This document shows, one piece after another, positions 3,286-56,620 of a stretch of 64,000 nt of DNA. Position 1 is the first letter of the stretch, and each line of letters starts with the position of its first letter. The stretch comes from Octopus vulgaris (lineage: Eukaryota): assembly GCA_951406725.2 (NCBI GenBank), contig OX597829.1:35402001-35466000 (forward strand). The letters run 5' to 3'. The position numbers and the translations under genes are program-made. The notes below the pieces were generated by a model. It was given only the letters and a program-made list of their open reading frames with translations. It ran no database searches and had not been told where the DNA came from.

Positions 3286-4384
3286 ACGTGCGTGAAAATA
3301 TAAACCACACGCGGAGATGCGATTTGCCCATAGAAGAATTGAAACAATGCGCGAGGATGCGGTGTCGCTATAGAAAAAAAGACAGGAAAAACTGTGAGTA
3401 CAAATAATAATCGTATATGCAGTCTCATAAATACACATAAATGTAATGCTTACATTGTTCACACAAGCAATCGTACATTTCGTATATGAAGAAGACAACG
3501 TATAACACACAGTGTTTAAACAAATTAAACGAGATAAATAATGATAACCATAGTTATAAAATGCAATACGTTGCATTTTAAATAGAGAGAAAAAAGATAT
3601 GCTTGATAATAAAACTTCGAAAACAAATAAAGGCGAATTTTTATCTATGAGTTTGAGGCGCTCAGATACGAAAACAACAATTGCACACAACCAGAGACGA
3701 AGTTCTGCCAAAAAGGTAACTCTAAACAGGTAGACCCCTCTCCTATTGTCACTGCCCAAGCGATAAACAAAACTAAAAAGGAACTGCAAAACTGTACCTG
3801 GGAAACACAGAAATAACAAGAGAAACATAGCAAATATGGAGAAGAAGAAATACTGATAGAAGCGGAAATGTTTCGGAGAATACTCTTGAGAATATCCAGG
3901 GATATATCCTACGAAAGGGAAAAGTGCCCCAAACCGAAATAGACAAACTAATAGATAAAATACACATGGAAAATAAAATAAAACTATTGAAATGGTTGCA
4001 AGACACAACGAAAATTTTAGGAAAATAAAAATAAGGAATAAGTGGAAATTTTACAGGTGAGTGTGTTACATTATAAGGCACAAAAAGAAAATGACTATCC
4101 CCAGACACAACAGAATATGTTTCAACCAAATCCAAAAACGAAAAATAAAACACATCACAACTCAAAACAATTGGACGCAATCAGGGAAAAACAGTACATT
4201 AGACATATCTCCGAAAACGCATAGGACACCACAAAAGAAAGGAGGGAACACAAAAGAGATAACACAACAAAGGGTAAATAACAGGCTATATCAAAGTTAA
4301 ATCTCTACACAGCTATCCAGCTCAGAAATAAATAGAATAGCACAGCAAATCAATAACACACAGGCGAATATTAACAATTAACAA

Positions 4385-5345
4385 TTAACAATCAAAAAGG
4401 CCAAAGAGATCCAAATAGTGACAAACGCATCATTGATGCAAAAACCATCAAACAAAAAGCAAAGAAGGCTTGCATAAATAATATCGAAGACAACTGGAAA
4501 AGTAAACTCCATGGAAAATACCATAACCGTCTGTCCAAGCCAGATATTGATCAAAATCTAACACACCAATGGCTACAACGGACAGGTCTGAAAGAGGAAA
4601 CTGAAGGTTTTGTTATTGCAGCGCACGGTCAGAGCGTACCTACCAGAAACTACCATGCAAACCTTCTTAAAGATGGATCTGACCCCTCGTGCAGAATTTC
4701 CAAAAAATTCACTGAGACTATTGATCATGTTTTTTCTAGCTGCCCAGTACTCGCTGAAAAGTAGTATCTCATAAGACATGACAGACTATGGCAGTACATC
4801 CACTGGAATGCTTGTAAATACTACAAAATTAAATCCCATGATAAGTGGTATAGGTACATTCCAGAGGATGTAGTAATATCGAGGCCATCACCATCTTTTG
4901 GAACTTCCCAATACAAACAGAGAGAAAAATTGACTCTAATCGACCTGAAATTGTGATCAAGGCCTACAACATAGGAACTAATCTGTTAATAGATATGTCT
5001 GACCCACATGATCAAAATATCTCAAGAAAGGAATACGAAAAGCTTTCTCACTATAAAGATCTGCAAGTTGAAATCACAAACATGCAGAAGCTGAGTACTA
5101 CAATAATACCAGTGGTAACTGGTGCGTTGGGAATGATAAAGTAGGGAGCTGAGAAGTATATTAAGCAACTCCCTGTTAACTCCAATCTCCGTGAACTACA
5201 AAAGATAACTTTGATGGGTACGGCCTATATACTACGGAAAGCACCCCTCATCTAAAATAGAATAATATGGTGATAATTTTAGCCTGCATAGTAAAACAAC
5301 AGTGCCCTTGCTACTCTTGGCTTCTGGAAGTTGCTCGGTACTAAG
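4385..5345 (+). mobile_element. R4/Dong-clade non-LTR retrotransposon, decayed 3' part (CCHC knuckle plus restriction-like endonuclease)
   Basis: Translations: KLHGKY, GLKEETEGFVIAA, CRI..ETIDHVFSSCPVL, RHD, NRPEIVI, LLIDMS, IIPVVTGALG. Stops and frameshifts present. Confidence 0.9.
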
Positions 5346-5865: not shown

Positions 5866-6984
5866 AATAATAATAACAATAATAATAATGATAATAATAA
5901 CAACAACAACAACAATAATAATAACAACAACAACAACAACAGCAGCAGCAGCAACAACAACAACAACAATAAAATAATAAACCCTGATCATGATACCCTA
6001 AAAGTGAGTATAAGCGAAGAATTAAAAGGCATAGAAGAAATTAGTGTGAAACCGAATGTACACTACAAAAATTTGACTTAATATGACAGCAAAAACAATA
6101 AAAAAACCCACTTAAATTTGGCTATCAAAGACATAATTCAGAGGCAAATATCAATATGATTAGGCTAAATGAAATGATATATGCAACTAATTAAGAATAA
6201 CAATATCATACTACACAATAAAAGAAAAAGAAAAAAAAAAGAAAAAATGGTATAAGAGGACTAAACCAAACCCAGATATACAAATGCCTAGAAATGAAGA
6301 ACTAGATAGGGTACAACATGAACAAAGGAAAGGAAAGACAAGATTCTTTTGGTACAATCCGCTGAAAGCAGAGAGAAGATCCTTTTCATATACTCCACTG
6401 GTAGCCAAGTCCCTCCTACATATGACAACATTTGCTCCAAACTATTTTACAAGTCAATGGTGCTCGGACACAGCGTATCCGAGCAGAAATGTTTCGACTT
6501 TCGAATTGCATTTTGGATAAGCTTAACTGCCGGTACTTCTTGTCTGACAAGTTTATCCCGTACCATCATTCCTATTTCGTTGTAATGCAACGATAGAATT
6601 TCTTGAAGATGTCCATAGACGTTGGGCTAAATTCTGAGGGATAGGTTGTTCAGTTCATATTCCTGCACGCCAACGGTCCTCCAGAGAACGTCATCGATTT
6701 TTTTCCTGCCGTTAATCCCTTCAAAATGCTATAGTTGAAATACCATCGATAACATTGCATTTATGGTAAACAACTGCAGACATCCGAGTACAATCCGTAA
6801 TAAACTAGTAATTAAGATAGATAGATCAACGGATAGCCAAATAGAGGAACACGTAGCAAGGGTGCAACATATAAAGTATAGTGAGTTGCAGAACATCGAT
6901 TGCTCTTGCAAGTGAAAGATAATGATATCATCTAGGGATGTCTAAAATCTAGAAATAGCAAGGAAGTGAAATTACTTCAATGAT

Positions 6985-7150
6985 AGGCGCAGGAGTGGCT
7001 GTGTGGTAAGTAGCTTGCTAACCAATCACATGGTTCCGGGTTCAGTCCCACTGCGTGGCATCTTGGGCAAGTGTCTTCTGCTATAGCCCCGGGCCGACCA
7101 AAGCCTTGTGAGTGGATTTGGTAGACGGAAACTGAAAGAAGCCTGTCGTA

Positions 7151-7248
<98 letters not shown>

Positions 7249-7445
7249 TCCCCCTAGCATTGCTTGACAACCGATGCTGGTGTGTTTACGTCCCCGTCAC
7301 TTAGCGGTTCGGCAAAAGAGACCGGTAGAATAAGTACTGGGCTTACAAAGAATAAGTCCCGGGGTCGACTTGCTCGACTAAAGGTGGTGCTCCAGCATGG
7401 CCGCAGTCAAATGACTGAAACAAGTAAAGGAATAAAAGAAAGAAA
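6985..7445 (+). mobile_element. tRNA-derived SINE, family A, full length, with internal (TA)n(TG)n and a CR1-like tail
   Basis: A-box TGGCTGTGTGG, B-box-like GGTTCAGTCC, CORE-like segment gtggcatcttgggcaagtgtctt, tail ggtgctccagcatggccgcagtcaaatgactgaaac. Many copies in the window. Confidence 0.92.
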
Positions 7446-7684
7446 GAATATCTGCTGATCTCTGGAAAATGAAGACAGTATAGTCAAGAGTGCATCTGGT
7501 CTTTAAAGCCAACCAATAGCAGCAATGGAGATGTTGTTGGCTTATTAGACTTCCTTAGCGAACTGTATTCATCTCAGTTCGTTAGAGATGATCAGTTATA
7601 TGCAGAAACAGGGAAAGTAGTTACACTAATTGCAATAAGGACCTCGGAAAATATCTTAGGAAGAAACACATGTAACATAATGAC

Positions 7685-12367: not shown

Positions 12368-12691
<324 letters not shown>

Positions 12692-13461: not shown

Positions 13462-13465
<4 letters not shown>

Positions 13466-13683
13466 TGTGTGCGTTTGTGTGTCTGTTTGTCCCCTAGCAT
13501 TGCTTGACCGATGCTGGTGTGTTTATGTCCCCGTTACTTAGCGGTTCGGCAAACGAGGCCGATAGAATAAGTACTGGGCTTACAAAAGAATAAGTCCCTT
13601 ACAAAAGAATAAGTTGCTCGATTAAAGGCGGTGCTCCAGCATGGCCGCAGTCAGATGACTGAAACAAGTAAAAGAGTAAAAGA

Positions 13684-13685
<2 letters not shown>
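13462..13685 (+). mobile_element. SINE family A, 3' half
   Basis: Matches 7240-7430. Confidence 0.9.
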
Positions 13686-14236: not shown

Positions 14237-14452
14237 TATATATGTATTTTATTTGTTCCAGTCTTTTAAATGCGGCAATGCTCGAGCACCGCCTTTAGTC
14301 AAACAAATCAACCCCATGACTTATTTTTTGCGAGCCTATTACTTATTCTATCGGTCTGTTTTGCCTAACCGTTAGATTACGGGGACGTAGACACGCCACC
14401 ATCGGTTGTCAAGCGATGTTGGGGAACAAACGCAGACACATAAAATACATAC

Positions 14453-14528
<76 letters not shown>

Positions 14529-14688
14529 GACGTACTTCTTTCAGTTTCCGTCTACCAAATCCACTCACAATGCTTTGGTCGGCCCGAGGCTATAGTAGAG
14601 GACACTTGCCGGGAGTGCTACTCAGTGGGAATGAACCCGGAACCATGTAGCTGGTAAGCAAGCTACATACTACACAGCCACTTCTGCA
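14237..14688 (-). mobile_element. SINE family A, full length, diverged
   Basis: Reverse-complement similarity to 6985-7445, with internal (TA)n. Confidence 0.9.
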
Positions 14689-15253: not shown

Positions 15254-15398
15254 TATATATATATATAAAGAGATGGGAATCACACCACTGCTATTTAGCC
15301 CTAAGAAACAGCAACGCTTCCTGTCGGCGTTGACACATTTCCTGTGTCCTTACGTTTACAAGGGGGAGATAAGCACCTCCACCCAGCTAAGTCTGCAA

Positions 15399-15439
15399 CC
15401 AGAAACTAGTTTCTGAGTCTTTGCTCGTCATCAGTCTGG
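15399..15439 (-). ncRNA. Minimal type I hammerhead ribozyme motif inside a ~225 bp cassette (15269-15491) flanked by TA runs
   Basis: Minus strand: ccaga-CTGATGA-c gag caaaga ctc a-GAAAC-ta-GTT-tctgg. Perfect 5 bp stem I; palindromic stem III AACTAGTT. Confidence 0.85.
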
Positions 15440-15589
15440 AGTAGCATGGCCTGCTAGTTGGATATGCTCATGTAAGTATAGCCCTTGTAGATATATAAGA
15501 ATTCTAGTGAAATAAATTCACTAATTACAAAAATAGAAATATTACATTTCTAAATATCTCAGAGAGATATAAGTACTTTGATAAAAGAA

Positions 15590-16235
15590 CTAACTCGCCA
15601 CAGTTTAGGATGTGCTCTGAGAAGGGAGAAAGTATAAGCCACATTGTTTCTGAGTGCACAACGCGAATACAAAAGGAGAAACAACAATGTGACCAGATAT
15701 GTCCACTGGTTGTTGTGCGGTAAAGTAAAGCCCAAGAGAGCCGAACAATGGTATGAACAGAAGGCAGGAGTAATGGGAAACGAACATTACAAAATACTCT
15801 GGGATTTTAACATACAGTGCGACCAAGTCATAGAAGAAAGACGACCAGGTATCGTGCTCATCCATAACGATGAAAAAGAAGCAAAGATAATAGATGCTGC
15901 AGTATCAGGTGATTCAAGGGTGAAATGTAAGGAAACAGAAAAGTGTGAGAAATACCAGCCACAGCGGGACGAGATAGATAAGTTATGGAGCATGAGAAAA
16001 GTAATGGTGATACCAGTGGTAATTGAAGCATTAGGAGCAGTTTCCAAGAGCTTTGAAAAACATATTAAGAATACTGGAGCTGCTGTCATGCTCAAAGTGA
16101 TGCAGAAGACAGCATTGTTGGGTACAGCTCGCATTCTAAGAAGAGTATTATCTCTTTGAGTCACAGGAGAAAGCACTACTTGAAACTGTTGGTGATTTCT
16201 CATTGCTTGCTTTCAAGTAAAGAGTAACCGGTAAT
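15590..16235 (+). mobile_element. R4/Dong-clade LINE 3' fragment ending just before (TAA)n
   Basis: ORF 15644-16159 contains KILWDFNIQCD, RRPGIVL, KIIDAAVSGD, VIPVVIEALG and TALLGTARILRRVL. Confidence 0.92.
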
Positions 16236-16256
16236 TAAGGACAATCCGAAAGTCTT

Positions 16257-16299
16257 TCATAATAATGATAATAATAATAATGATGATAATAATAATAAC

Positions 16300-25325: not shown

Positions 25326-25478
25326 TGTCTCAGTGGTCTTGTGGGTAAAGACATTGACACATCAACACCTATACCCCTTAGAGAAAGGTTCAATCCTTGT
25401 AAAAACATTTAGTGTTTTTAAATGGCGGTGCCCCAGCATGGCCACAGCTCATGAGCTGAAACTAGAATCAATCAATCA

Positions 25479-25482
<4 letters not shown>
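25324..25482 (+). mobile_element. Short tRNA-derived SINE with a CR1-like tail and (ATCA)n end
   Basis: A-box TGGTCTTGTGG, B-box GGTTCAATCC, tail ggcggtgccccagcatggccacagctcatgagctgaaac. Confidence 0.75.
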
Positions 25483-25530
<48 letters not shown>

Positions 25531-25536
25531 TATGTA

Positions 25537-27011
<1,475 letters not shown>

Positions 27012-28687: not shown

Positions 28688-30505
28688 ATTTAGATTACTT
28701 TGATTACTTAGATAAGTTTCGGCCGAAGTTGGCCCAGGCCATGTCTAATTTAATAGCAGCACCTGGAAGAGATACGCAGTCAGGTCTTGGGCACCGTAGC
28801 CCATTCGAGCAGAGAGTTATTGATTTCAGGGACATATCTAGGTGTGGGTGGTTTGTATGGTATTTGTTGGAGGTAATCATCGAGGAGCCGTTTGAATGCC
28901 GTGAAATCACTTTCCTCCTTTATGTGGGCTGGTACATTGTTGAAGAGAGCAGGGCCAGTTGAGGTGAAATAGTTTTGTCGTAGTGTTGTGATACGACACG
29001 AACATTTCTGTAGTGGACAGATGGCACGGGGGCCAAATATCGGATGAATTTTAAAGTTGATATCTATATCATTTGGGCAATGCTGATGAATATTTTCCAC
29101 ATCATACAGATGATATAGCGCTCACGGCGACGTTGGAGGGAGTAAAGCCTGAGCTTTTTTAGTTGATCCCAATAGTCAAGGCTTGTCATGTCATCTATTT
29201 TTTTGTGATTGATCTCTGGAGCTTCAATTTTCATAATATTCTGTATCTTGTGGGGGGATCACAGCGGACAACAGTATTCAAGGTGAGGGCAAGCAGAAGT
29301 AGAGAAAAGCAGGATAATGATTGGGTCGTCTCTAGACCGGAAAGCCCTGAGGATCCAGAAGCACGCCCTGCGAGCCATGTCACCTTTGCTGTTTATGTGA
29401 GCACTCCAGCTTATTTTGTTGTCAACAGTAACACCCAGGTCTCTAGGATTTTTGAATTGCTGGATGCTACGAGGGTTTTGCTCGATGGAAGAGTGTATGA
29501 TTGTTGGAATGCAGTCTCTTTACCGAAGTGGACTAACTTGAATCTTTTCTCGTTTAGCTGTGTAATATTTTTTTCCGCCCGTTGGATAACAGCTAACAGA
29601 TCAGATTGATGATTTGTCTGGTCTTCAACAACCTTCAGTAACTTAGAGTCATCCGCGAAAATATGCATGATACTGTATTTAATGACGTCAGTGATGTCGT
29701 TAATATAAATTATGAAAAGGAGTGGGCCTAATACAGTGTCTTGTGAGACTCCATTTATAACCCCGACTGAGGTCGATCGGACACCATCAATCACTACATG
29801 TTGTGTTCTGTTCATTAGAAAACATTTAATCCAAGTTAACAGTTTTCGTTGGACACCAATGTTGGACAGTTTCTTTAACAGGGTGCAGTGATCAACGCTG
29901 TCAAAAGATTTGTTGAAGTCAAGGTATATGACATCTGCATTGGAGCCCTTTAAAATGTCATTGAAATGATGAAAGAGCTGTGTTAAGCAGTCCCTTCCGT
30001 TGCGGAAGCCATGCTGGTTGCGAATAAGTAGGCTGTTAGATTCCAAGATGTGAGTTACGTGAGATCTCACCACACTCTTGATGATATGAGAGGTAAGTGA
30101 GATCGGTAGGTAGTTCACGGCGCGTGGCATTTTGTTTTTCTTGAAAACTGGGGTAATCGCCTGGGAGAGGAAATTTTCAGGGATATAGCCTGCATCCATT
30201 GATTTTCACCAGAGAGTAGCTAAGGGGAGAGCTAACTAGAGTCGGCACTCCTTCAGGACTCTAGCGGAGAACCTATCGGGGCCTGCAGTTGAGTTATTCT
30301 TTATTTTGGTAATAGCTGCTATGATGTCCAAGGCGTGAAATGATATGCCAGAAAGGGTGTGCTGTGGGTTTTTTTTTTTTCATATATGTTGGCCAGGTTA
30401 AATATACTAGGATTACTGAAAGCAGAGCAGTATTGTTTCTGCAGAATCTCAACTATATCTTCTGCCGTACTACGGAGAGTGATGTCTTCGGCAATCAGAG
30501 GTCCG
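28688..30505 (-). mobile_element. CR1-clade LINE, 5'-truncated, decayed
   Basis: NYLPISLTSHIIK, QHGFRNGRDCLTQL, YLDFNKSFD, VLGPLLFIIYIND, FADDSK. Tail homologous to 26798-26868. Confidence 0.93.
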
Positions 30506-36039: not shown

Positions 36040-37091
36040 AAAGCTCACCCATTGAATTTGTGACTCTTCAAACAGTTGTACTCTGAAAACGATGAAGAAT
36101 TTCAGAGGCTTTTACACAGATGTGCGATTGCTTTCTAAAGGAAACTGCCTTGCTCGCCTTTTCTCGCTCTTTACCTGCGTCTTTAGTTTCTTACAGTCGG
36201 TGGAATCATCGCTAGCATCGTCGCAGCCATCAATTTCTACGTTGCCTACTTGGCTGACATACTCGCGAAGTTCAACTACCTGAACCTCCACCTGCAGGGT
36301 GATAAAACCAACCTAATCAAATCCAAGTCCGTTATCTATGGTTTTTATCATGAAACTGCCCTTTTACTGGCGAAATATTGGACGCAAAGACTTCTGTCAA
36401 TTTCCAAGCCTTAGAAAACTGGGAGAATACTCATCTGATCATACGCCTTATCTTTTCACAGAGCATCTCAAGAATGCTGAAGCTGACACGAAACTGCGTT
36501 TTCAGGATCTGTCAGATCTGGAAATCCCTCCTTGGATCTTGGACACTTTTCAGATCACAGATATCGACATGGACGGATCAATTGAGCGAGAATTTATTAC
36601 TTGCAAAATGATTTTGAATTGAAACCTTTTTTTAAGCGGCACGCTTACCAAGAAATGTTGGCTGCAGTCCACTGTTCCAGAAACTGCATTGTGAGAAAAG
36701 GCAAAGTCATTTTCTATTGCCTTCCCAACCTCGCATTTAGTTGAAAGAGGTTTCAATGTAGTGTCCCAGATTCTCAACAAGTCGAGAAATCGCCTGGATT
36801 TTGTGCAGAAAGGAGACCTGTGACTTCGCCTTACCGTTATGAAGCCCAGTATTGTATAACTGTTGACCAAACGCCATATTCATCCTTCACATTAATTACA
36901 TGTATTTCCATGCTTAATGAAAAAAGAAAATGCTATTCAGAACTACGTTTCTATAAATTTTACTAAGATTAGATGACAGAAACGACAATTTTACTTCAAG
37001 TATCTTCTTATCCCAATAAACGTGGTGTCGAACATTTTTATTAGGATGGGTGAAAATGTTGGAAAAGTTTGGACAAGTTGGGGAACCACTG
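36040..37091 (+). mobile_element. hAT (Charlie/Buster-like) transposon, decayed 3' part with right TIR
   Basis: TDVRLLSKGNCLAR, AYLADI..LNLHLQG, dimerisation motif FPTSHLVERGFN. Terminus ...ttggggaaccactg. Confidence 0.88.
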
Positions 37092-37590
37092 GTCTACAAC
37101 ATCACGAAGGCGATATATAACCTCCTGTAAGTATTCCTTATTTATTGTTTGGACTTGTGATGTGTATTCATGATACACAATACGACAGGGGTCAAAGAAA
37201 CTGGTCAACATAGTCTTCACATTGCTGTGAACATGTGGTGCTATTTTGGGGTTCTGGTGATGACGGATACTTCCTTTGGGAAGGCTGGAACTTGGTTTAT
37301 GGGTCGTAACCATAAACCCACTGATGATGGTCTTCCTGAAGTTTGGGTTTTCGTTTGCACAGTCAAGCACATCCTGAGTGATTTCCATGCAGAGCTGCTT
37401 CTGCTGTTTCGCCAGTATCTTGGGGACGAATTTCGTTGACACTCTTCTTATGCACAAAACGGCTGTTAAATTGGAATGCGCTGATGCTTATTCCCACTCC
37501 GTGAGCAATTTCCTGGATTGGTACACTACGGTATTCCATAACTAATCACCGAACCTTTTCAATCGGTTCCTCGGTTCGGCTTGTAGATGG
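37092..37590 (-). mobile_element. mariner transposase fragment
   Basis: VSTKFVPKIL, KTMLTSFFD..IVYHEY..QTINKEY. Confidence 0.88.
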
Positions 37591-38891: not shown

Positions 38892-39227
38892 ACACACAGA
38901 CACAAACACACACACACACACACGCGCACGCACACACACACACACACACACCTTCTTAGCTTACAATTTCTTTCTTTTAACAATTGACAACTGAAGTACG
39001 CTCGCAAATTAATACTACCAAAACTTAGCGACAGAAAAAACTTTATATGCCATGACCCAATCGAATCTACTTCGAAAAATCATAGGTAAATTCCAATTGA
39101 AGAAATTCTATATTGTACAATTGTATTAAAAACAAACTATGTGAGAGGCAGAGAAAATCTGCCTTTTATCGTAAGAGATATAGCGGCGTACGTACACTTT
39201 TTGCTCACTTTACATATATACATTCTT

Positions 39228-39700
39228 TTATTTTTTTATTTCTTTCAGTCACTTGACAGCTGCCATGCTGGATCATCGCCTTTAGTCGAACAAATCGACC
39301 CCAGGACTTATTATTTGTAAGTCCAGTACTTATTCTATTGGTCTTTTTGCCGAACCGCTAAGTTATGTGGACGTAAAGACACCAAAATCGGTTGTCAAAA
39401 GACGAAGGTTGGACAAGCGAGGTCGACTTTGCCTTTCATCCTTTCGGCTTCGATTGAATAAGTACCAGTTATTCACTGGGGTCGATGTACTCGACTTAAT
39501 CCCTTTGTTTGTTCTTGTTTGTCACCTCTATGTTTAGCCCCCTGTGGGCAATAAAGACAGGCTTCTTTCTACCGAATCCACTCACAAAGCTTTGGTCGGC
39601 ACGAGGCTATAGTAGAAGGCACTTGCCCAAGGTACCACACAGTGTGATGAGAATCTGGAGCCCTGTTGTTGGTAAGCAAGCTTCTTACCACACAGCCATA
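39228..39700 (-). mobile_element. SINE family A with its central microsatellite replaced by an opposite-strand family B 3' fragment (39418-39560)
   Basis: Similarity to both SINE families. Confidence 0.8.
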
Positions 39701-39779
39701 TCTTAAGACAAAGTATCTGATAGGGAAAATTAAGGAGCCATAGAAGATTATCATTGTAGGCGGAAACCCCTAAAGTCTT

Positions 39780-40368: not shown

Positions 40369-40427
<59 letters not shown>

Positions 40428-40595
40428 CATAAGGGACATTAGCCATTTGAATGTGGCTAGGGACAGGGCAGGGCGGTAGGGGTGTTACTGATGCATTTAG
40501 CCCCAGGCGATCATCAACGTCACCAGATAGGCTGACACCATCACGGTGTCCTCTATCCTGCAAAGGGAGATCATTCCCCGAAGAAGCGGATGCCA

Positions 40596-40640
40596 CATAC
40601 GGACCCAGGTTTCAAGGTATTTGCCTATCGTCAACGCATG
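40596..40640 (-). ncRNA. Type I hammerhead motif (C3U variant), inverted copy
   Basis: Minus strand: catgcg-TTGACGA-t agg caaata cct t-GAAAC-ctgg-GTC-cgtatg. Confidence 0.78.
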
Positions 40641-40853
40641 GCAGGCACCGCTCACCCCCACCGCCCTGCCCTGTCCCTAGCCACATTCAAATGGCTAATG
40701 TCCCTTATGTTATGGAGCAGTTACTGTCTATATCTCGTATAGAGAATTATTATTGCTGTCGAACAGATTTTCGAAATCAGTAAATGTATTTACGTGAAAA
40801 TCTATATATAAATATCCTGCACAGAGAGTTGTTCGTCGAGGAGCGGTGCCTGC

Positions 40854-40898
40854 CATGCGTTGACGATAGGCAAATACCTTGAAACCTGGGTCCGTATG
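40854..40898 (+). ncRNA. Type I hammerhead motif (C3U variant)
   Basis: catgcg-TTGACGA-t agg caaata cct t-GAAAC-ctgg-GTC-cgtatg. Stem I can extend via tgcca/tggca and gagcgg/ccgctt. Confidence 0.78.
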
Positions 40899-41126
40899 TG
40901 GCATCCGCTTCTTCGGGGAATGATCTCCCTTTGCAGGATAGAGGACACCGTGATGGTGTCAGCCTATCTGGTGACGTTGATGATCGCCTGGGGCTAAATG
41001 CATCAGTAACACCCCCACCGCCCTGCCTTGTCACTAGCCACATTCAAATGGCTAATGTCCCTTATGTTATGGAGCAGTTACTGTCTATATCTCGTTTAGA
41101 GAATTATTATTGCTATATATATATAT

Positions 41127-41232
41127 AGTTAATCCAAACAAGAAAACACAGAAAAAAACACAGCAACGCAGGACGTGGAACAATTAAAGTATTATTGACG
41201 GTCAGGAAAGAAGGGAAGGAGGGTTTAACGTT
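41127..41232 (-). mobile_element. Terminus of the 51338-51568 cassette family, abutting (TA)n and cut at the hammerhead stem III
   Basis: Reverse-complement similarity to 51459-51568. Confidence 0.75.
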
Positions 41233-41760
41233 CCTTAACCTTACAAATAGAAGCATGAAATTTTGATACAATATAAAGAACACAATGGAAATTAATATGC
41301 TTACGTCACATTTTGCAACACCGCTACATCACATACGAAAAATGACATCGATTAAATGGCTACCATTTTCGATTTCGCACGCCCGTACCCTTTTCAAAAC
41401 TGGCACCATAACAACTTCAAGAGTTTCAGACCCGCCTATTGATGTTTTCCTTCAGTTGTACCAGAGTCTCCGGTTTGTTGACGTAAACCCTAAATAGAGA
41501 AATCAGAGAAGTGGGGCCTGAAACTCTTCATTTTGTTATGGTGCAAATTTTGGAAAGAGCTTAGGCGGACGAAGCCGAAAATGGCTGCCATTTAAGCGAA
41601 GTCATTTTTCATATGTGATGTAGTGGTGTTGCAAAATCTGACTTGTGCATATTTATTGCCATTGTATCTGTTATATTGTATCACAATTTCATCCATATAT
41701 TTGTAAAGTTAAGCAATTTATTAAAAATTGAAACCCATCAGTAACTTTTGGGACACTCTG
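41233..41760. mobile_element. Palindromic Tc1/mariner-type MITE, left end lost
   Basis: Arms ~41233-41430 and ~41530-41713 are imperfect inverted repeats. Right terminus reads TA|CAGAGTGTCCCAAAAGTTAC on the minus strand. Confidence 0.8.
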
Positions 41761-43391: not shown

Positions 43392-44368
43392 TGTTGGACA
43401 AAATAATGGAAATACCTAGCATCATAATTTTGAAACATCTTTAAAGTCGTCAAAAGCTTGTCTATTTTTATGTTTTTTGATTCGTTATTAGTGTTGCTTA
43501 ATATGTTTTGCTAAAATTGCTGTTTCTTTTCAGATATCACCAGAAAAGTTAATTAAAATACATAAAAATCACAGATCTATCCGACTTTCAAAGATGTCAA
43601 ATTGTTGGTGCTCGTATGGCAGGAGCTAGCGAAACGTAAACAGCCAAAATGTTTGGTGTCTCAAGAAATACTGTCTCAAAAGTAATGAGAGTCTTTGAGA
43701 AAGGGGAAAAACCTCCTCGTCGAAACGAAACTCCGGAAGAAAGCCAAAACTTTTAGATAGGGACCGTTGACTCTTACGCGAATTGCTAGAAAGGATCATA
43801 AAAGTACAGCCCCCCAAATTACTGTAGAGCTTAATGACCACCTCGGGAACCCAGTTTCCACAAAAACTATTCACCGGGAGCGGCACAAAGCTGGATTTCA
43901 CGGGAAGGCTGCAATCAGAAAACCGCTACTTTCAAAAACAAACGTTGCAAAACGTTTAGAGTGGAGTAAAAACCTATAGAATTAGTCCCCAGAGCAATGG
44001 AAGAATGTTATTTCCTCGGATGAGTCATCTTTTACCTTATTTCCGACCACCGGCCGAGTATACGTGTAGAGACAACCAAAAGAAGCATTGACCCAGACTG
44101 CATACTTTCAATTGTTAAACATGGTGGAGAATCTGTGACGATCTGGGGGGGGGGGGCTATATCTTGGAAATCCGTCGGTCTAAAGGTTTCCCTTTATGGA
44201 AGAATTAATAGTCAAGACTATTTAAGCATTTTATCTTATCAAATTCATCCGGAGGGAAACGCAATCTTTCACGATGATAATGCACCAATTCACACTGTTA
44301 AAGTTGTTACTGAATGGCACGAAGTTGAACATCTTATCTGGCCACCACAGTCCCCAGATCTCAATACT
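43389..44368 (+). mobile_element. Tc1-like transposon, decayed, 3'-truncated
   Basis: Left TIR-like ggtgttggacaaaataatggaaatacc after TA. Motifs NSGRKPK, AIRKPLL, VISSDES, VKHGG, FHDDNAPIH, WPPQSPDLN. Confidence 0.92.
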
Positions 44369-44373
44369 ATGTG

Positions 44374-44445
<72 letters not shown>

Positions 44446-44489
44446 TGTGTGTATATTTGTTTGTTTTGGTATGTGTAATTGTGTATGTG

Positions 44490-45735
44490 TGTGATGACGG
44501 GCGCAAGATTTCTTTCTTTACATATTTAGATGTGAAAAGAGCAGCAACTGAACAGCAATCTTTTTTATGCATGGCACAAAAGATTGTCCGGCAGCTGACC
44601 TGGCCTCAGACACAAACTTGAAACTACACTCACCACCACACAAGGCCACCACCATCAACGGATATAGGATGGTCACCACGGACACCAACACACACGCCCC
44701 CCCCCCCAAATATTTCTTCTAAATATAGAAGGGCTGTTGCATGGCAATTGTAAAACTAAAATCTTGTTCCTGTGAGAGATCGTGTGGTATGGAAACAAGC
44801 TCTATGCATGACACTTGTATAAACGCATCTTAGACATGATATAGGGGATGCAGATTACACATACCACAATATGTTGTCATCCGCTCAATTAGAAAGGATA
44901 GGAGTCATGGTGGAGTTGCTGTGTACATCACGGAGGACCTCACGCCCCAGGTCCTGCTGTCTTCAAATTCAGTGTGTGGCACTCAAATTGTACACATTAG
45001 ACAATTTAATATTGTTATATGTACTACATGTCGCCCACCGGATGCTCCAAGTCATAGAGGCAGGTTTGAAGATTCCCTAGCAAAGATAGAAGTTCTCACC
45101 AAACTGGGACAACACATCAGCGTATTCCTTTTGAGTGACCTGAACATCCTCAATGTGGGATGGCATGGGAACCAGATGCTCCCAGGAATGACATATCACC
45201 AGCAAGCACAGGGGGGGGGGGAATCCCTGCTCCACCTCACCAATGCTTCTTTCATGGAGCAAATTGTGCTGCAACCAACACTGGATTTCTGCTTCACGAA
45301 CAATAGGGACATTATCCATAATGTTAAAACGACAACGGCACTGGTCTCGGAACACAACATAATAGAACTGTCTATTTGTGGACCAAAAGTCCCTGCAGAC
45401 ATACAACTTATACGAAGCACTATGAATCTCTCCAAACTAAATTTCAATTAGAAGTTGATTGAGAAAGAGATCCTCAAACAGGATTGGCCTAAATGTCTCT
45501 CCACACCAGACATTGACATGATATACAGACGTTTCATGTCCATTGTACAAGCCATAAGTAACAAATTTGTCCCAGTGTGCAGGGCCAACATACAAAAAAA
45601 AAAACCGGATCCCTAGGGAAAGGAAGATTCTTATGAGATAACGACAAAGATTGCGAACCGCCTGAGCAAGCATCCCAAAAGTGGTGGCAGGTCTTGTCTG
45701 GAGAGAAGGCTATTGGAGATTGAGAAAACTATGCA
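44490..45735 (+). mobile_element. CR1-like LINE 5' fragment (AP endonuclease region), decayed
   Basis: RKDRSHGGVAVYI, CRPPD, LLSDLNI, QIVLQPTLDFCFTN, SEHNII. Confidence 0.82.
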
Positions 45736-45736
45736 T

Positions 45737-45859
45737 CAGGACTTATTCTTTGTAAGCCTAGTACTTATTCTACCGGTCTCTTTTGCTGTATCGCTAGGGT
45801 ACAGGGACGCAAACACACTAACATCGATTGTCAAGCGTTGGCGGGGAACAATGCAGACA

Positions 45860-45890
<31 letters not shown>

Positions 45891-46075
45891 GCACACACAC
45901 ATGTATATATATATATTTATACGACGGATTTCCTTCAGTTTCCGTCTACCAAATCCACTCACAAAGCTTTGTGAGTAGCCAGAAGCTATAGTACAAGAAG
46001 TTCGAACAAGGTGCCACGTAGTGGGAAAAAACCCCGGAGTCATGTGGTTGGGAAGCAAGCTTCTTACCACACAGT
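45737..46075 (-). mobile_element. SINE family A, diverged
   Basis: Reverse-complement similarity to 6985-7370. Confidence 0.85.
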
Positions 46076-46461
46076 CGTATGTTCCAAAGCCTGATTGATC
46101 TATTGGTTGTTAGTCCACGCGTTGTTTCGTTTGTCTGATGACCGTAAACAACCTGTAGAGATGAGACAAATGAGATAAGTGCATATAGCGTGACAGTTAA
46201 ACTTACGGCATGCAGATTAGTAGCTCCGGTTCTCTGCGCCTGCAGGATTTATTATGTATATAAATGGAATCGTTGCTTATTTCAGAGGGGTTGCTCAAAT
46301 TGACTTAGACACTTCTGATAACACCCCAATAAGGTCTGAAAATCGATTGTCCATTTTTTTTTCAGTCTACGGAGAAATCGGTACATTTACCCTGTTTACA
46401 TATATCTATGGCATTGGTTACGTTTATAATGCAGAATGATACACCCACACATACATAAATG

Positions 46462-48178: not shown

Positions 48179-48676
<498 letters not shown>

Positions 48677-51759: not shown

Positions 51760-52221
51760 TGTGATAATTGTTTTTGTTTTTGTTTTTAAGTTGGAGTTTA
51801 AAATAGATTGTAGTAAATGTTTGTAATAAATAAACAGAAAGAATTAAAGTTTTGTCTGAAGTAGTTTTCGTTTGAAGTTCAAATAGGTATCATGATGTGG
51901 TCTGTTCATTTGAAAGAGTGTGTTTCTGTATGAGTTAGATAGTGGTTTACGTGGTTCCAAATAGCAGTTCTTTTCTGGGGAGAATGGAGGATAAAAGTGC
52001 TCAAACTCATGTACCAATAAAATCACAGGCAATGCTTACAGTTTCAGGAAGATCCATAGAGGCATTCATATATGTAAGCTCACACACACACACAAATATT
52101 TTTACATACATAAGTACGTACATACAAATGTACATACGTAGGTACGTACGTACGTACATATATACATACATACACACATACATAAACATAAATAAATATT
52201 CTTTCATTCTTTTTCTTTTAT

Positions 52222-52435
52222 ACTTTTATTTGTCTCAGTCATTTGATTGCGACCAAGCGGGAGCACCACCTTGAAGGGTTTTTAGTCGAACAAATCGACC
52301 CTTGCAGTATTTTTTACTTCCAGTACTGTACTTTTCTATCGAGTTCTTCTGCCGAACCGGTTAGTTGTGGAGACGTAAACACAATAACAACGGTTGTCAA
52401 GATGTGATAGGGTTAAAACACAGAAACACACTCAG
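52222..52435 (-). mobile_element. SINE family A, diverged 3' half
   Basis: Reverse-complement similarity to the family A tail. Confidence 0.75.
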
Positions 52436-55565: not shown

Positions 55566-56225
55566 CACACACACACGCACATACACACACACATATAGAC
55601 AGAGAAAGAGGAAGATAGCAATAACTACTTCCTTAGATGTTCGAATAAACATCCACGATTTGCCTTGATACAAAATAGCTGTAAAAAAGTAGGCGAGATG
55701 AATAAAAGTTTATTTGAAAATTATAGTGGCTTAATAGTTTACTACATTTTCGAGTTTAACGTTCAAGTTAAATAAATTAAATTAAAAAATTAATTTAATT
55801 TAAATTTGGCACGTGTTGCTCTCTTCAGCACTATTTTACCCATATTTACGAAAAATATGTATAATTTTAAAGCATTACCTTATTCATTCACAGCCAAAGT
55901 TCAAAGTATGTAAAAATATTCAAAAGTTTAGAGGGTAAGAAGGTGTAAATTTCCATCCAAAATTTCAGCATGCTTCTTGCCGGGGCGGCAAATAGGTATA
56001 TATAGACCGAGAGAAAGAGAAAGACAGGAATAAATGCTCAATATGAAACTCTACATTTACTTTATAATTCCATATATGAAGGTGCCACTCATTTGCTTGA
56101 TTGTCAATATGTCTATTGATTTACTCCGGAATAAAGTTTTCCCTAAACTCCAATTTTTTTGTTTGTAGATTGGAAGTCTATTTATTAATGAAATTCATGC
56201 TTAATGAGTTATGGATCTTTTATCT

Positions 56226-56620
56226 TGTATATTTTACTTGTTTCGGTCATTTGACTGCAGCCAAACTTGGGTACCGCCTTGAAGGGTTTTTATTCGAAGA
56301 AACCGGCCCGGGGATTTATTTCTTAAAGCCTGGTACTTATCCTGTCGATCTCTTTTTCCAAACTGCTAAGTTACAGGTATATAAACACACCAACACCAGT
56401 TGTCAAGCGGCGGTGGGGAGTCAAACACAAATACAAAGACGTGAACACACACGGGCACAAACACTCACACACACATATACAATGGACTTCTTCCAGTTTC
56501 CGTCCACCAAATCCTCTCACAATGCTTTGATTGGTCCGGGGCTATAGTAGAAGACATTTGCCCAAGGTGCCATGCACTGAGACTGAACCCGGAACCATGT
56601 GGTTAGGAAGCAAGCCTCTT
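56226..56620 (-). mobile_element. SINE family A, diverged
   Basis: Reverse-complement similarity to 6995-7435. Confidence 0.85.

Follow-up and report, generated by a model that had tools for sequence, protein, structure and literature searches.

Two non-coding cassettes on opposite strands of the window, by which we mean the whole 64-kb stretch of DNA that was analysed, carry hammerhead ribozymes set within the same larger RNA fold, and downstream of the ribozyme they share a module of two hairpins that is real, structured and selected. Cassette A (15269-15545, minus strand, with an uncertain 5' limit between 15545 and about 15570) is an incomplete unit of a non-coding repeat that bears a hammerhead, with a GC content of 41.5%, and is colinear with positions 40729-41003 of cassette B, which belongs to a unit of 357 bp (40756-41112, plus strand, 45.9% GC). 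The two are probably representatives of anciently diverged families of non-LTR retrozymes, a known kind of repeat, that travel as non-autonomous passengers of Penelope-like elements (PLEs). The new detail, absent from the literature searched, is the combination of a conserved module outside the ribozyme with a twin-ended insertion.

Hammerheads and the similarity around them

A scan of the window for hammerhead cores, with stem checks, returned three sites, namely A at 15440(-), B at 40854(+) and, absent from the initial annotation, an inverted copy of B at 40640(-). The ribozyme features which that annotation had described were borne out in each sequence: stem I is formed by 15439-35/15403-399 in A (5 bp) and by 40854-59/40893-98 in B (6 bp including one G.U), and stem II consists in both of 3 bp with a basal mismatch (C.A in A, U.U in B) and a CAAANA loop. 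The type I hammerhead of A (15399-15439, minus strand) has a canonical core, a predicted cut after 15404 (GUU) and a palindromic helix III region that is capable of forming a self-duplex of -7.2 kcal/mol. That of B (40854-40898, plus strand) has a predicted cut after 40892 (GUC), a near-palindromic loop 3 and a U3 opposite G8. No variants at 40860 or 40865 are listed in four public sequence runs, and U3 opposite G8 is therefore taken as the state of the B family; because of this pairing partner, and because the active fold costs about 6 kcal/mol, cleavage by B is uncertain.

The loop CAAAUA is also loop 2 of the Schistosoma hammerhead. Canonical metazoan type I hammerheads in general have a helix I of 6 bp and a short helix III whose loop is palindromic (PMC4209133), so that the ribozymes of A and B are weak evidence of special kinship and the informative part is the sequence outside them. 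Focused Rfam scans of both cassettes gave no hammerhead match at E<=10, and none was present among the best 150 of 166 rows for the entire window, where the matches were microsatellite-driven.

Outside the ribozyme, the similarity is real. The cassettes are colinear over about 280 nt, longer than first noted, with an alignment score of 55 (the best of 1000 shuffles reached 39) and an identity of 49% (152/313 columns, counted by hand). A local alignment restricted to the downstream part scored 37, a value attained by 1 of 10,000 dinucleotide shuffles, and the B copies were the best non-self tiles among 2556. The downstream motifs that had been proposed as conserved are indeed present and colinear in both cassettes, except that the exact pattern ATCTCCCYTTG fails on A, which carries one C more. 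Matches at 1024(-) and 6624(+) are single motifs, not further copies of the cassette. A weaker part of the resemblance is found upstream, at 15491-15523 (minus strand) in A, where a small hairpin (15523-05) and a TATA-like stretch have a counterpart in B; none of 5000 shuffles matched as well, yet microsatellite tiles score equally. Runs of at least four T occur in either unit only at 40768-40771 (+) in B and 15533-15529 (-) in A, homologous places upstream of the TATA-like stretch, and could serve as Pol III stops in a tandem arrangement.

Neither cassette appears to code for protein. No reading frame common to A and B was found, which also led us to reject an ORF starting at the hammerhead of the type seen in the anole PLE PAc, and no Pfam family matched either unit among the low-complexity-filtered frames of at least 75 aa (132 of 226). 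In the frames scanned within the window, no PLE ORF (reverse transcriptase, RT, plus GIY-YIG) adjoins A or B. ARAGORN reported 0 tRNA genes in the window, although degenerate heads can escape it, and a tRNA-derived SINE identity was set aside for lack of a tRNA-like head.

The 3' end of A adjoins a (TA)n tract (15254-15268) and lies 135 nt past its own predicted cut site and 24 nt past the module, while its 5' side adjoins a LINE fragment; the tandem and inverted-copy pattern of B was not seen there. The neighbouring element, at about 15568-16260 (+), is the 3' end of a 5'-truncated non-LTR retrotransposon that ends in (TAA)n and, by our reading, includes a zinc knuckle and a restriction-like endonuclease region. 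Its homologues, coral or shrimp proteins among them, are at 63%; it stands head to head with the 5' end of A, and an inverted repeat of 7 bp is found at about 15554-15570.

The remainder of the window is AT-rich animal DNA with many microsatellites and transposon remnants, probably from an octopod to judge by a homologue and by the interspersed repeats described next. Two RT fragments, 25455-26868 (+) and 28697-30205 (-), match RVT_1 with E about 1e-17 and are 66% alike mutually; the second has its best named homologue, at 55%, in the octopod Argonauta hians, and none of the tests applied associated either fragment with PLEs. Two short interspersed repeat families, which resemble octopus SINEs, have many copies beside (TA)n or (TACA)n tracts (6983-7451, 12486-12637, 13465-13684, 14248-14687, 39223-39704, 45737-46083, 48180-48573, 52206-52412 and 56223-56620). 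Weak DDE_3, Transposase_1 and zf-RVT remnants below the Pfam cut-offs lie at 44024-44491 (+), 37044-37487 (-) and 4375-4761 (+).

A common RNA fold

Folded separately, A and B adopt the same plan, which consists of a rod of about 35-40 bp extending helix I, a GACAC/GTGTC hairpin, a GCC/GGC hairpin and the sequence UAAAU. Past helix I, the predicted rod adds 31 pairs in A and 33 in B. In A it spans 15357-15489 (minus strand), with helix probabilities of 0.83-1.0 when the hammerhead is constrained and of 0.99 for the basal helix (15489-82/15364-57); in B it spans 40813-40940 (plus strand), with probabilities of 0.82-0.99 and, for the basal helix (40813-21/40932-40), 0.98. The first hairpin of the module lies at 15332-15348 (minus strand, 6 bp, p 0.97) in A and at 40944-40960 (plus strand, p 0.79-0.97) in B. 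The second has GCC/GGC at its base and a loop of six bases that C-G closes and that contains CGTTG; it is found, together with the UAAAU that follows, at 15293-15328 (minus strand) in A, with the loop C(GUUGCU)G, a probability of 0.92-0.94 and an alignment by model R3, and at 40961-40999 (plus strand) in B, with the loop C(GUUGAU)G, placed by the fold and the model alignment. ATCTCCCYTTG had been listed among the downstream motifs and, allowing for the extra C, it does occur in both cassettes, but it is not a free signal, its CCYTTG being the 3' strand of the helix at the base of the rod. For a long-range helix of B (41004-10/41077-83, p 0.88-0.93), A lacks an obvious equivalent. Four other small hairpins in a row, considered at first, were abandoned because most of them scored a low probability when the folded sequence took in the upstream arm.

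The suggestion that the cassettes belong to a larger structured RNA is upheld because structure contributes about 20 bits beyond sequence alone in finding A, because the rod pairing is family-specific and because natural variants avoid the pairs; a unit RNA made of a rod and two hairpins is supported. A covariance model built from B alone recovers A at 34.6 bits, as against 14.9 bits without structure (both over 38 kb). Even with the hammerhead left out, a module-only model from B gives A a score of 24.6 bits (E roughly 3.5e-5), compared with 7.7 bits by nhmmer and 11.3 bits for the top unrelated match; the antisense strand of B reaches 15.9 bits with this model, so hairpin symmetry supplies part of the score of A. 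The rod was assessed by an alignment-free control in which arms were paired within and between families. Within families the arms pair at -36.2 kcal/mol in A (1/2000 shuffles) and -51.1 in B (0/2000), and across families at -23.6 (upstream arm of A with downstream arm of B, 26/2000) and -19.8 (upstream arm of B with downstream arm of A, 1313/2000), that is, each rod pairs far better with itself than with the other.

When the alignment of the two cassettes is fitted to the structure, both partners differ in 23 of the 63 pairs, compared with 1 to 3 in slid controls. The 17 pairs of the module include only 3 double-changed, 10 invariant and 1 broken, which counts against the proposed reading; such counts lean towards the model and come from two independent sequences. 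At five of the six GACAC/GTGTC pairs, and in the GCC/GGC base, A and B have identical letters. From an ordinary MAFFT alignment, RNAalifold predicted the GACAC hairpin as well as helix II and missed the rod. Taken alone, the module hairpins have z-scores of -2.9 and -2.6; the fold of the B unit has a z-score of -4.0, and that of the whole cassette A, at -1.5, is unremarkable.

The B insertion and its relatives in public sequence runs

The B locus consists, in order, of a (TA)n tract, an inverted copy, 1.28 direct units and a second (TA)n tract. The direct units (40653-41114, plus strand) are a head-to-tail arrangement of the 357-bp monomer in which 40653-40757 is repeated at 41010-41114 (97.1% over 105 bp), and the inverted, 5'-truncated copy (40424-40653, minus strand) corresponds to 40841-41070 (98.7% over 230 bp), with a 1-nt overlap at the inversion point. 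The outer ends of both rest on (TA)n and both are 3' ends of the hammerhead strand, offset by 42 bp, which leaves a 'tail' (41071-41112) on the right of the insertion and none on the left; it folds into small hairpins and is seen at one locus. The overlapping copies differ at only 3/103 and 3/230 positions and the insertion is therefore young. Both copies extend across the predicted cut of the hammerhead (by 240 and 52 nt), and one is longer than a unit; the template was therefore uncleaved, tandem or circular. The 3' ends lie 178 and 220 nt past the cut site, and 71 and 113 nt past the module. As side observations, the first 3' end (41058-41070) is by eye alike at 9/13 positions to the last 13 bases of Naiad_Obim, a short, AT-rich resemblance likely due to chance, and just to the right of the insertion lies a MITE-like, self-inverted repeat of about 490 bp (41231-41716, 75%).

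B is a dispersed, many-copy, non-coding family of at least three organisms. It was found in 20 of the 24 runs listed, from 10 studies with four organism labels, and in four of these, with three organism labels, contigs were compared with 40756-41118 at 80% likeness. All four contained contigs matching the unit (978, 14, 672 and 390), at most 1% of the matching DNA contigs extended into unlike sequence (a figure limited by the shortness of the contigs), and the unit-to-unit joint 41112->40756 was present in two (one contig in run X6, three in X5). Summed contig depth, which is no measure of copy number, is greatest at 40990-41002, in the second module hairpin and the UAAAU, in 4/4 runs, with a second peak over the tail (41068-41106); in run X1 the peak is 1.19 million, against 15,000-39,000 over 40795-40898. 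In agreement with this profile, a divergent 359-nt monomer from X6 matches 40759-40828 and 40961-41091 and thus keeps the module, while 134 other letters replace the rod and hammerhead. In the same run there are two permuted contigs of almost unit length (364 and 359 nt), which fit a circle or a tandem alike and, X6 being only guessed to be RNA, prove neither transcription nor circles. Among the runs with B none is recorded as RNA, which has no bearing on expression.

Variation within the family spares the predicted structure. Of 11 common substitutions in 40808-41003 (at least 15% in at least two of runs X1, X5 and X12), one breaks a pair or core base, where 5.2 were expected (P 0.006), and at a 5% threshold 2/14 are disruptive against 6.5 expected; the P values are generous, as B itself supplied the structure and the same subfamilies recur across the runs. 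The single disruptive common variant, at 40815, breaks a rod pair. Among the others are a change of the stem I G.U to A-U, one at the free N7 base, one by which loop 3 becomes perfectly palindromic and two in the last hairpin that preserve pairing; frameshifting indels also occur. Loose contig ends, inspected by eye, show another palindromic loop 3 and a third GACAC-type hairpin whose sixth pair is U-A, compared with C-G in B and A-U in A.

Proposed mobilization and possible role of the module

We propose that a PLE protein with RT and GIY-YIG domains copies retrozyme units in trans. The supported part of this scheme is the unit RNA itself, in which a long rod is tipped by the hammerhead and two hairpins, conserved in sequence and in pairing, come after it. 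The template would be tandem or circular unit RNA, and, judging from the anatomy of the B insertion, the PLE protein would nick both strands of a (TA)n target, after which reverse transcription would start at two sites about 42 nt apart to yield a copy longer than a unit on one strand and, on the opposite strand, a shorter one in inverted orientation. Cleavage probably takes place in hammerhead dimers formed through the palindromic loop 3, releasing monomers that may circularise. The weakest step concerns the module, for which we see a nearly even prospect that it is the cis element bound by the PLE protein. Such a role as a recognition signal would agree with the PLE-type insertion at B and with what is described for the anole PLE (PMC11167929). 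The more detailed version, in which the module would be the RNA recognised by the PLE RT and conserved while the hammerhead rod drifts, and in which circular unit RNA would be copied by twin priming from two internal starts, is advanced tentatively. A fixed distance from module to RT start is contradicted by the 3' ends, which lie 24 nt past the module in A and 71 and 113 nt past it in B, unless A is truncated. Moreover, (TA)n flanks other repeats in the window and is not by itself specific to PLEs.

The cassettes might instead be the truncated pseudo-LTR (pLTR) ends of two autonomous PLE families, the module being part of the pLTR of the PLE itself. Most PLE hammerheads occur singly, in elements that are truncated (PMC4209133), the retrozymes of Xenopus match pLTRs (bioRxiv 10.64898/2026.07.22.740005) and A is a single partial unit, and yet the hammerheads are of the canonical and not the minimal PLE build, the B units stand head to tail without an ORF, and hardly any DNA contigs run from B into unlike sequence, within the reach of such short contigs. 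This reading is improbable, and it would still leave the module a cis element of PLEs. That shared motifs are a functionless residue of common descent, or a convergence of hairpin-rich satellites, is far less credible: although there are two full sequences, three double changes in the module and a depth profile that gives no copy number, neutral descent would not have kept the module while the rod changed almost wholly and yet stayed paired, and the variants avoid pairs.

A different function for the module has to be taken more seriously, even if we consider it on balance unlikely. It could have been kept at the DNA level, or for transcription or the stability of circular RNA, and not as an RT-binding RNA signal, which would cover an internal promoter, an endonuclease recognition site and a site for a ligase or host protein. 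The sequence invariance of most GACAC/GTGTC pairs and of the GCC/GGC base could be explained in this manner, as could the TATA-like stretch upstream in both cassettes and the unequal distances from the module to the 3' ends of A and B, and the Penelope endonuclease of D. virilis recognises tail DNA (as cited in PMC11167929). On the other hand, the wobble-tolerant and double changes suggest that RNA pairing is under selection, ARAGORN detected no tRNA-like head, and retrozymes seem, in the published text consulted, to be without promoters (PMC7761336).

For the preferred reading of A and B as PLE-mobilized retrozymes, a partner PLE carrying the module was sought in the window and in scans of public prokaryote, viral and metagenome sequences and was not found there. 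The hammerhead-core pattern had 7 viral and 55 prokaryote matches, none with the module (best module score 26), and the module pattern had 5 viral matches without an upstream hammerhead and 0 prokaryote matches. One metagenome match (L063) was rejected as chance, as it lies inside an ORF that we read as fatty-acid synthase III. Viral contigs L003, L005 and L006, and also L026, were noticed to have hammerhead-like motifs in which the stems pair and loop 2 is CAAANA, but not the module; in the first three, a start-codon region follows the motif.

PLEs are the suspected partners in the mobility of animal retrozymes, and a module within a PLE-like twin-end insertion provides a concrete RNA for testing. 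If the proposal is true, the module is the missing motif that identifies the partner enzyme of retrozymes and can be used as a probe to find it; if the module has no such role, A and B add one more retrozyme family, probably in a new host group.

Comparison with known systems

B resembles the metazoan non-LTR retrozymes (PMC7229834, PMC7761336) in its non-coding unit within the range of 150-450 bp and with GC below 50%, and both cassettes share with them the canonical type I hammerhead, the weak palindromic helix III and the self-paired fold, to which B adds tandem joints. Its 357-bp unit is similar in size to the 350-390-bp units of mussel retrozymes, and the basal U.U mismatch in helix II recalls that of axolotl HHR_Amex2 (PMC7229834). 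B differs from the canonical retrozyme hammerhead in U3 opposite G8, and whereas two or more consecutive hammerheads are a retrozyme trait, the tandem extends to 1.28 units at the B locus and A is single. Retrozyme repeats are described as showing no conserved motif that would indicate a partner element (PMC7761336, in the text consulted); unlike that description, the A and B families, at about 49% identity, have a structured non-ribozyme module in common. Neither a cephalopod retrozyme nor such a module was found in the openly accessible papers searched; a consensus may exist in repeat-database libraries.

The hammerheads of A and B are unlike the minimal form of PLEs, which has a helix II of 7-8 bp, a short helix I whose loop 1 is not well defined, and no helix III (PMC4209133), in that helix II has 3 bp plus a mismatch, helix I is a long rod and a short helix III is present. 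The octopus Naiad PLEs (Naiad_Obim and Naiad_Ovul, supplement of PMC8557442) show in octopods the same (TA)n insertion preference as is seen at B but, as described there, have no canonical hammerhead and have long been inactive in cephalopods. The motif GGGCTAAAT occurs in that supplement once per orientation, in coding-like contexts outside the octopus entries, and Naiad was rejected as the partner on the absence of the module motif from those entries (a text search, in which line breaks can hide matches).

The anatomy of B, by contrast, matches the insertion pattern of PLEs, which includes partial tandems, an adjacent inverted 5'-truncated copy, a one-sided tail of 30-40 bp and a bias for (TA)n (PMC8557442). 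The protein of the anole PLE, Poseidon PAc, cuts both strands of AT-rich DNA, requires the first 172 nt from hammerhead stem II and uses uncleaved RNA, and its two RT start sites delimit the 30-40-bp tail (PMC11167929). B is like the PLE pLTRs (PMC11167929, PMC8557442) in its partial tandem with inverted copy, its one-sided tail, at 42 bp on the upper edge of the PLE range, and its AT-rich target; in both cassettes the module, situated after the hammerhead, lies at the position of the region required by the anole protein. Unlike PAc, A and B lack an ORF starting at the hammerhead, and the 3' ends of B, at 178 and 220 nt past the cut, are further away than in PAc, where RT starts 111-118 nt into the ORF and the cut is at 26 nt.

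Li, Clavereau and Pollet regard retrozymes as non-autonomous derivatives of PLEs (bioRxiv 10.64898/2026.07.22.740005), which is the same conclusion on origin and likely mobiliser as the one reached here for A and B. Their case rests on vertebrate co-occurrence and pLTR similarity, the main text describing no RNA module, twin-end or tail signature and leaving the mechanism of retrozyme mobility unresolved, whereas ours comes from a folded module and the anatomy of an insertion. If the host is an octopod, a partner PLE is plausible, because 30 Penelope families have recently been active in Octopus vulgaris (PMC13282606).
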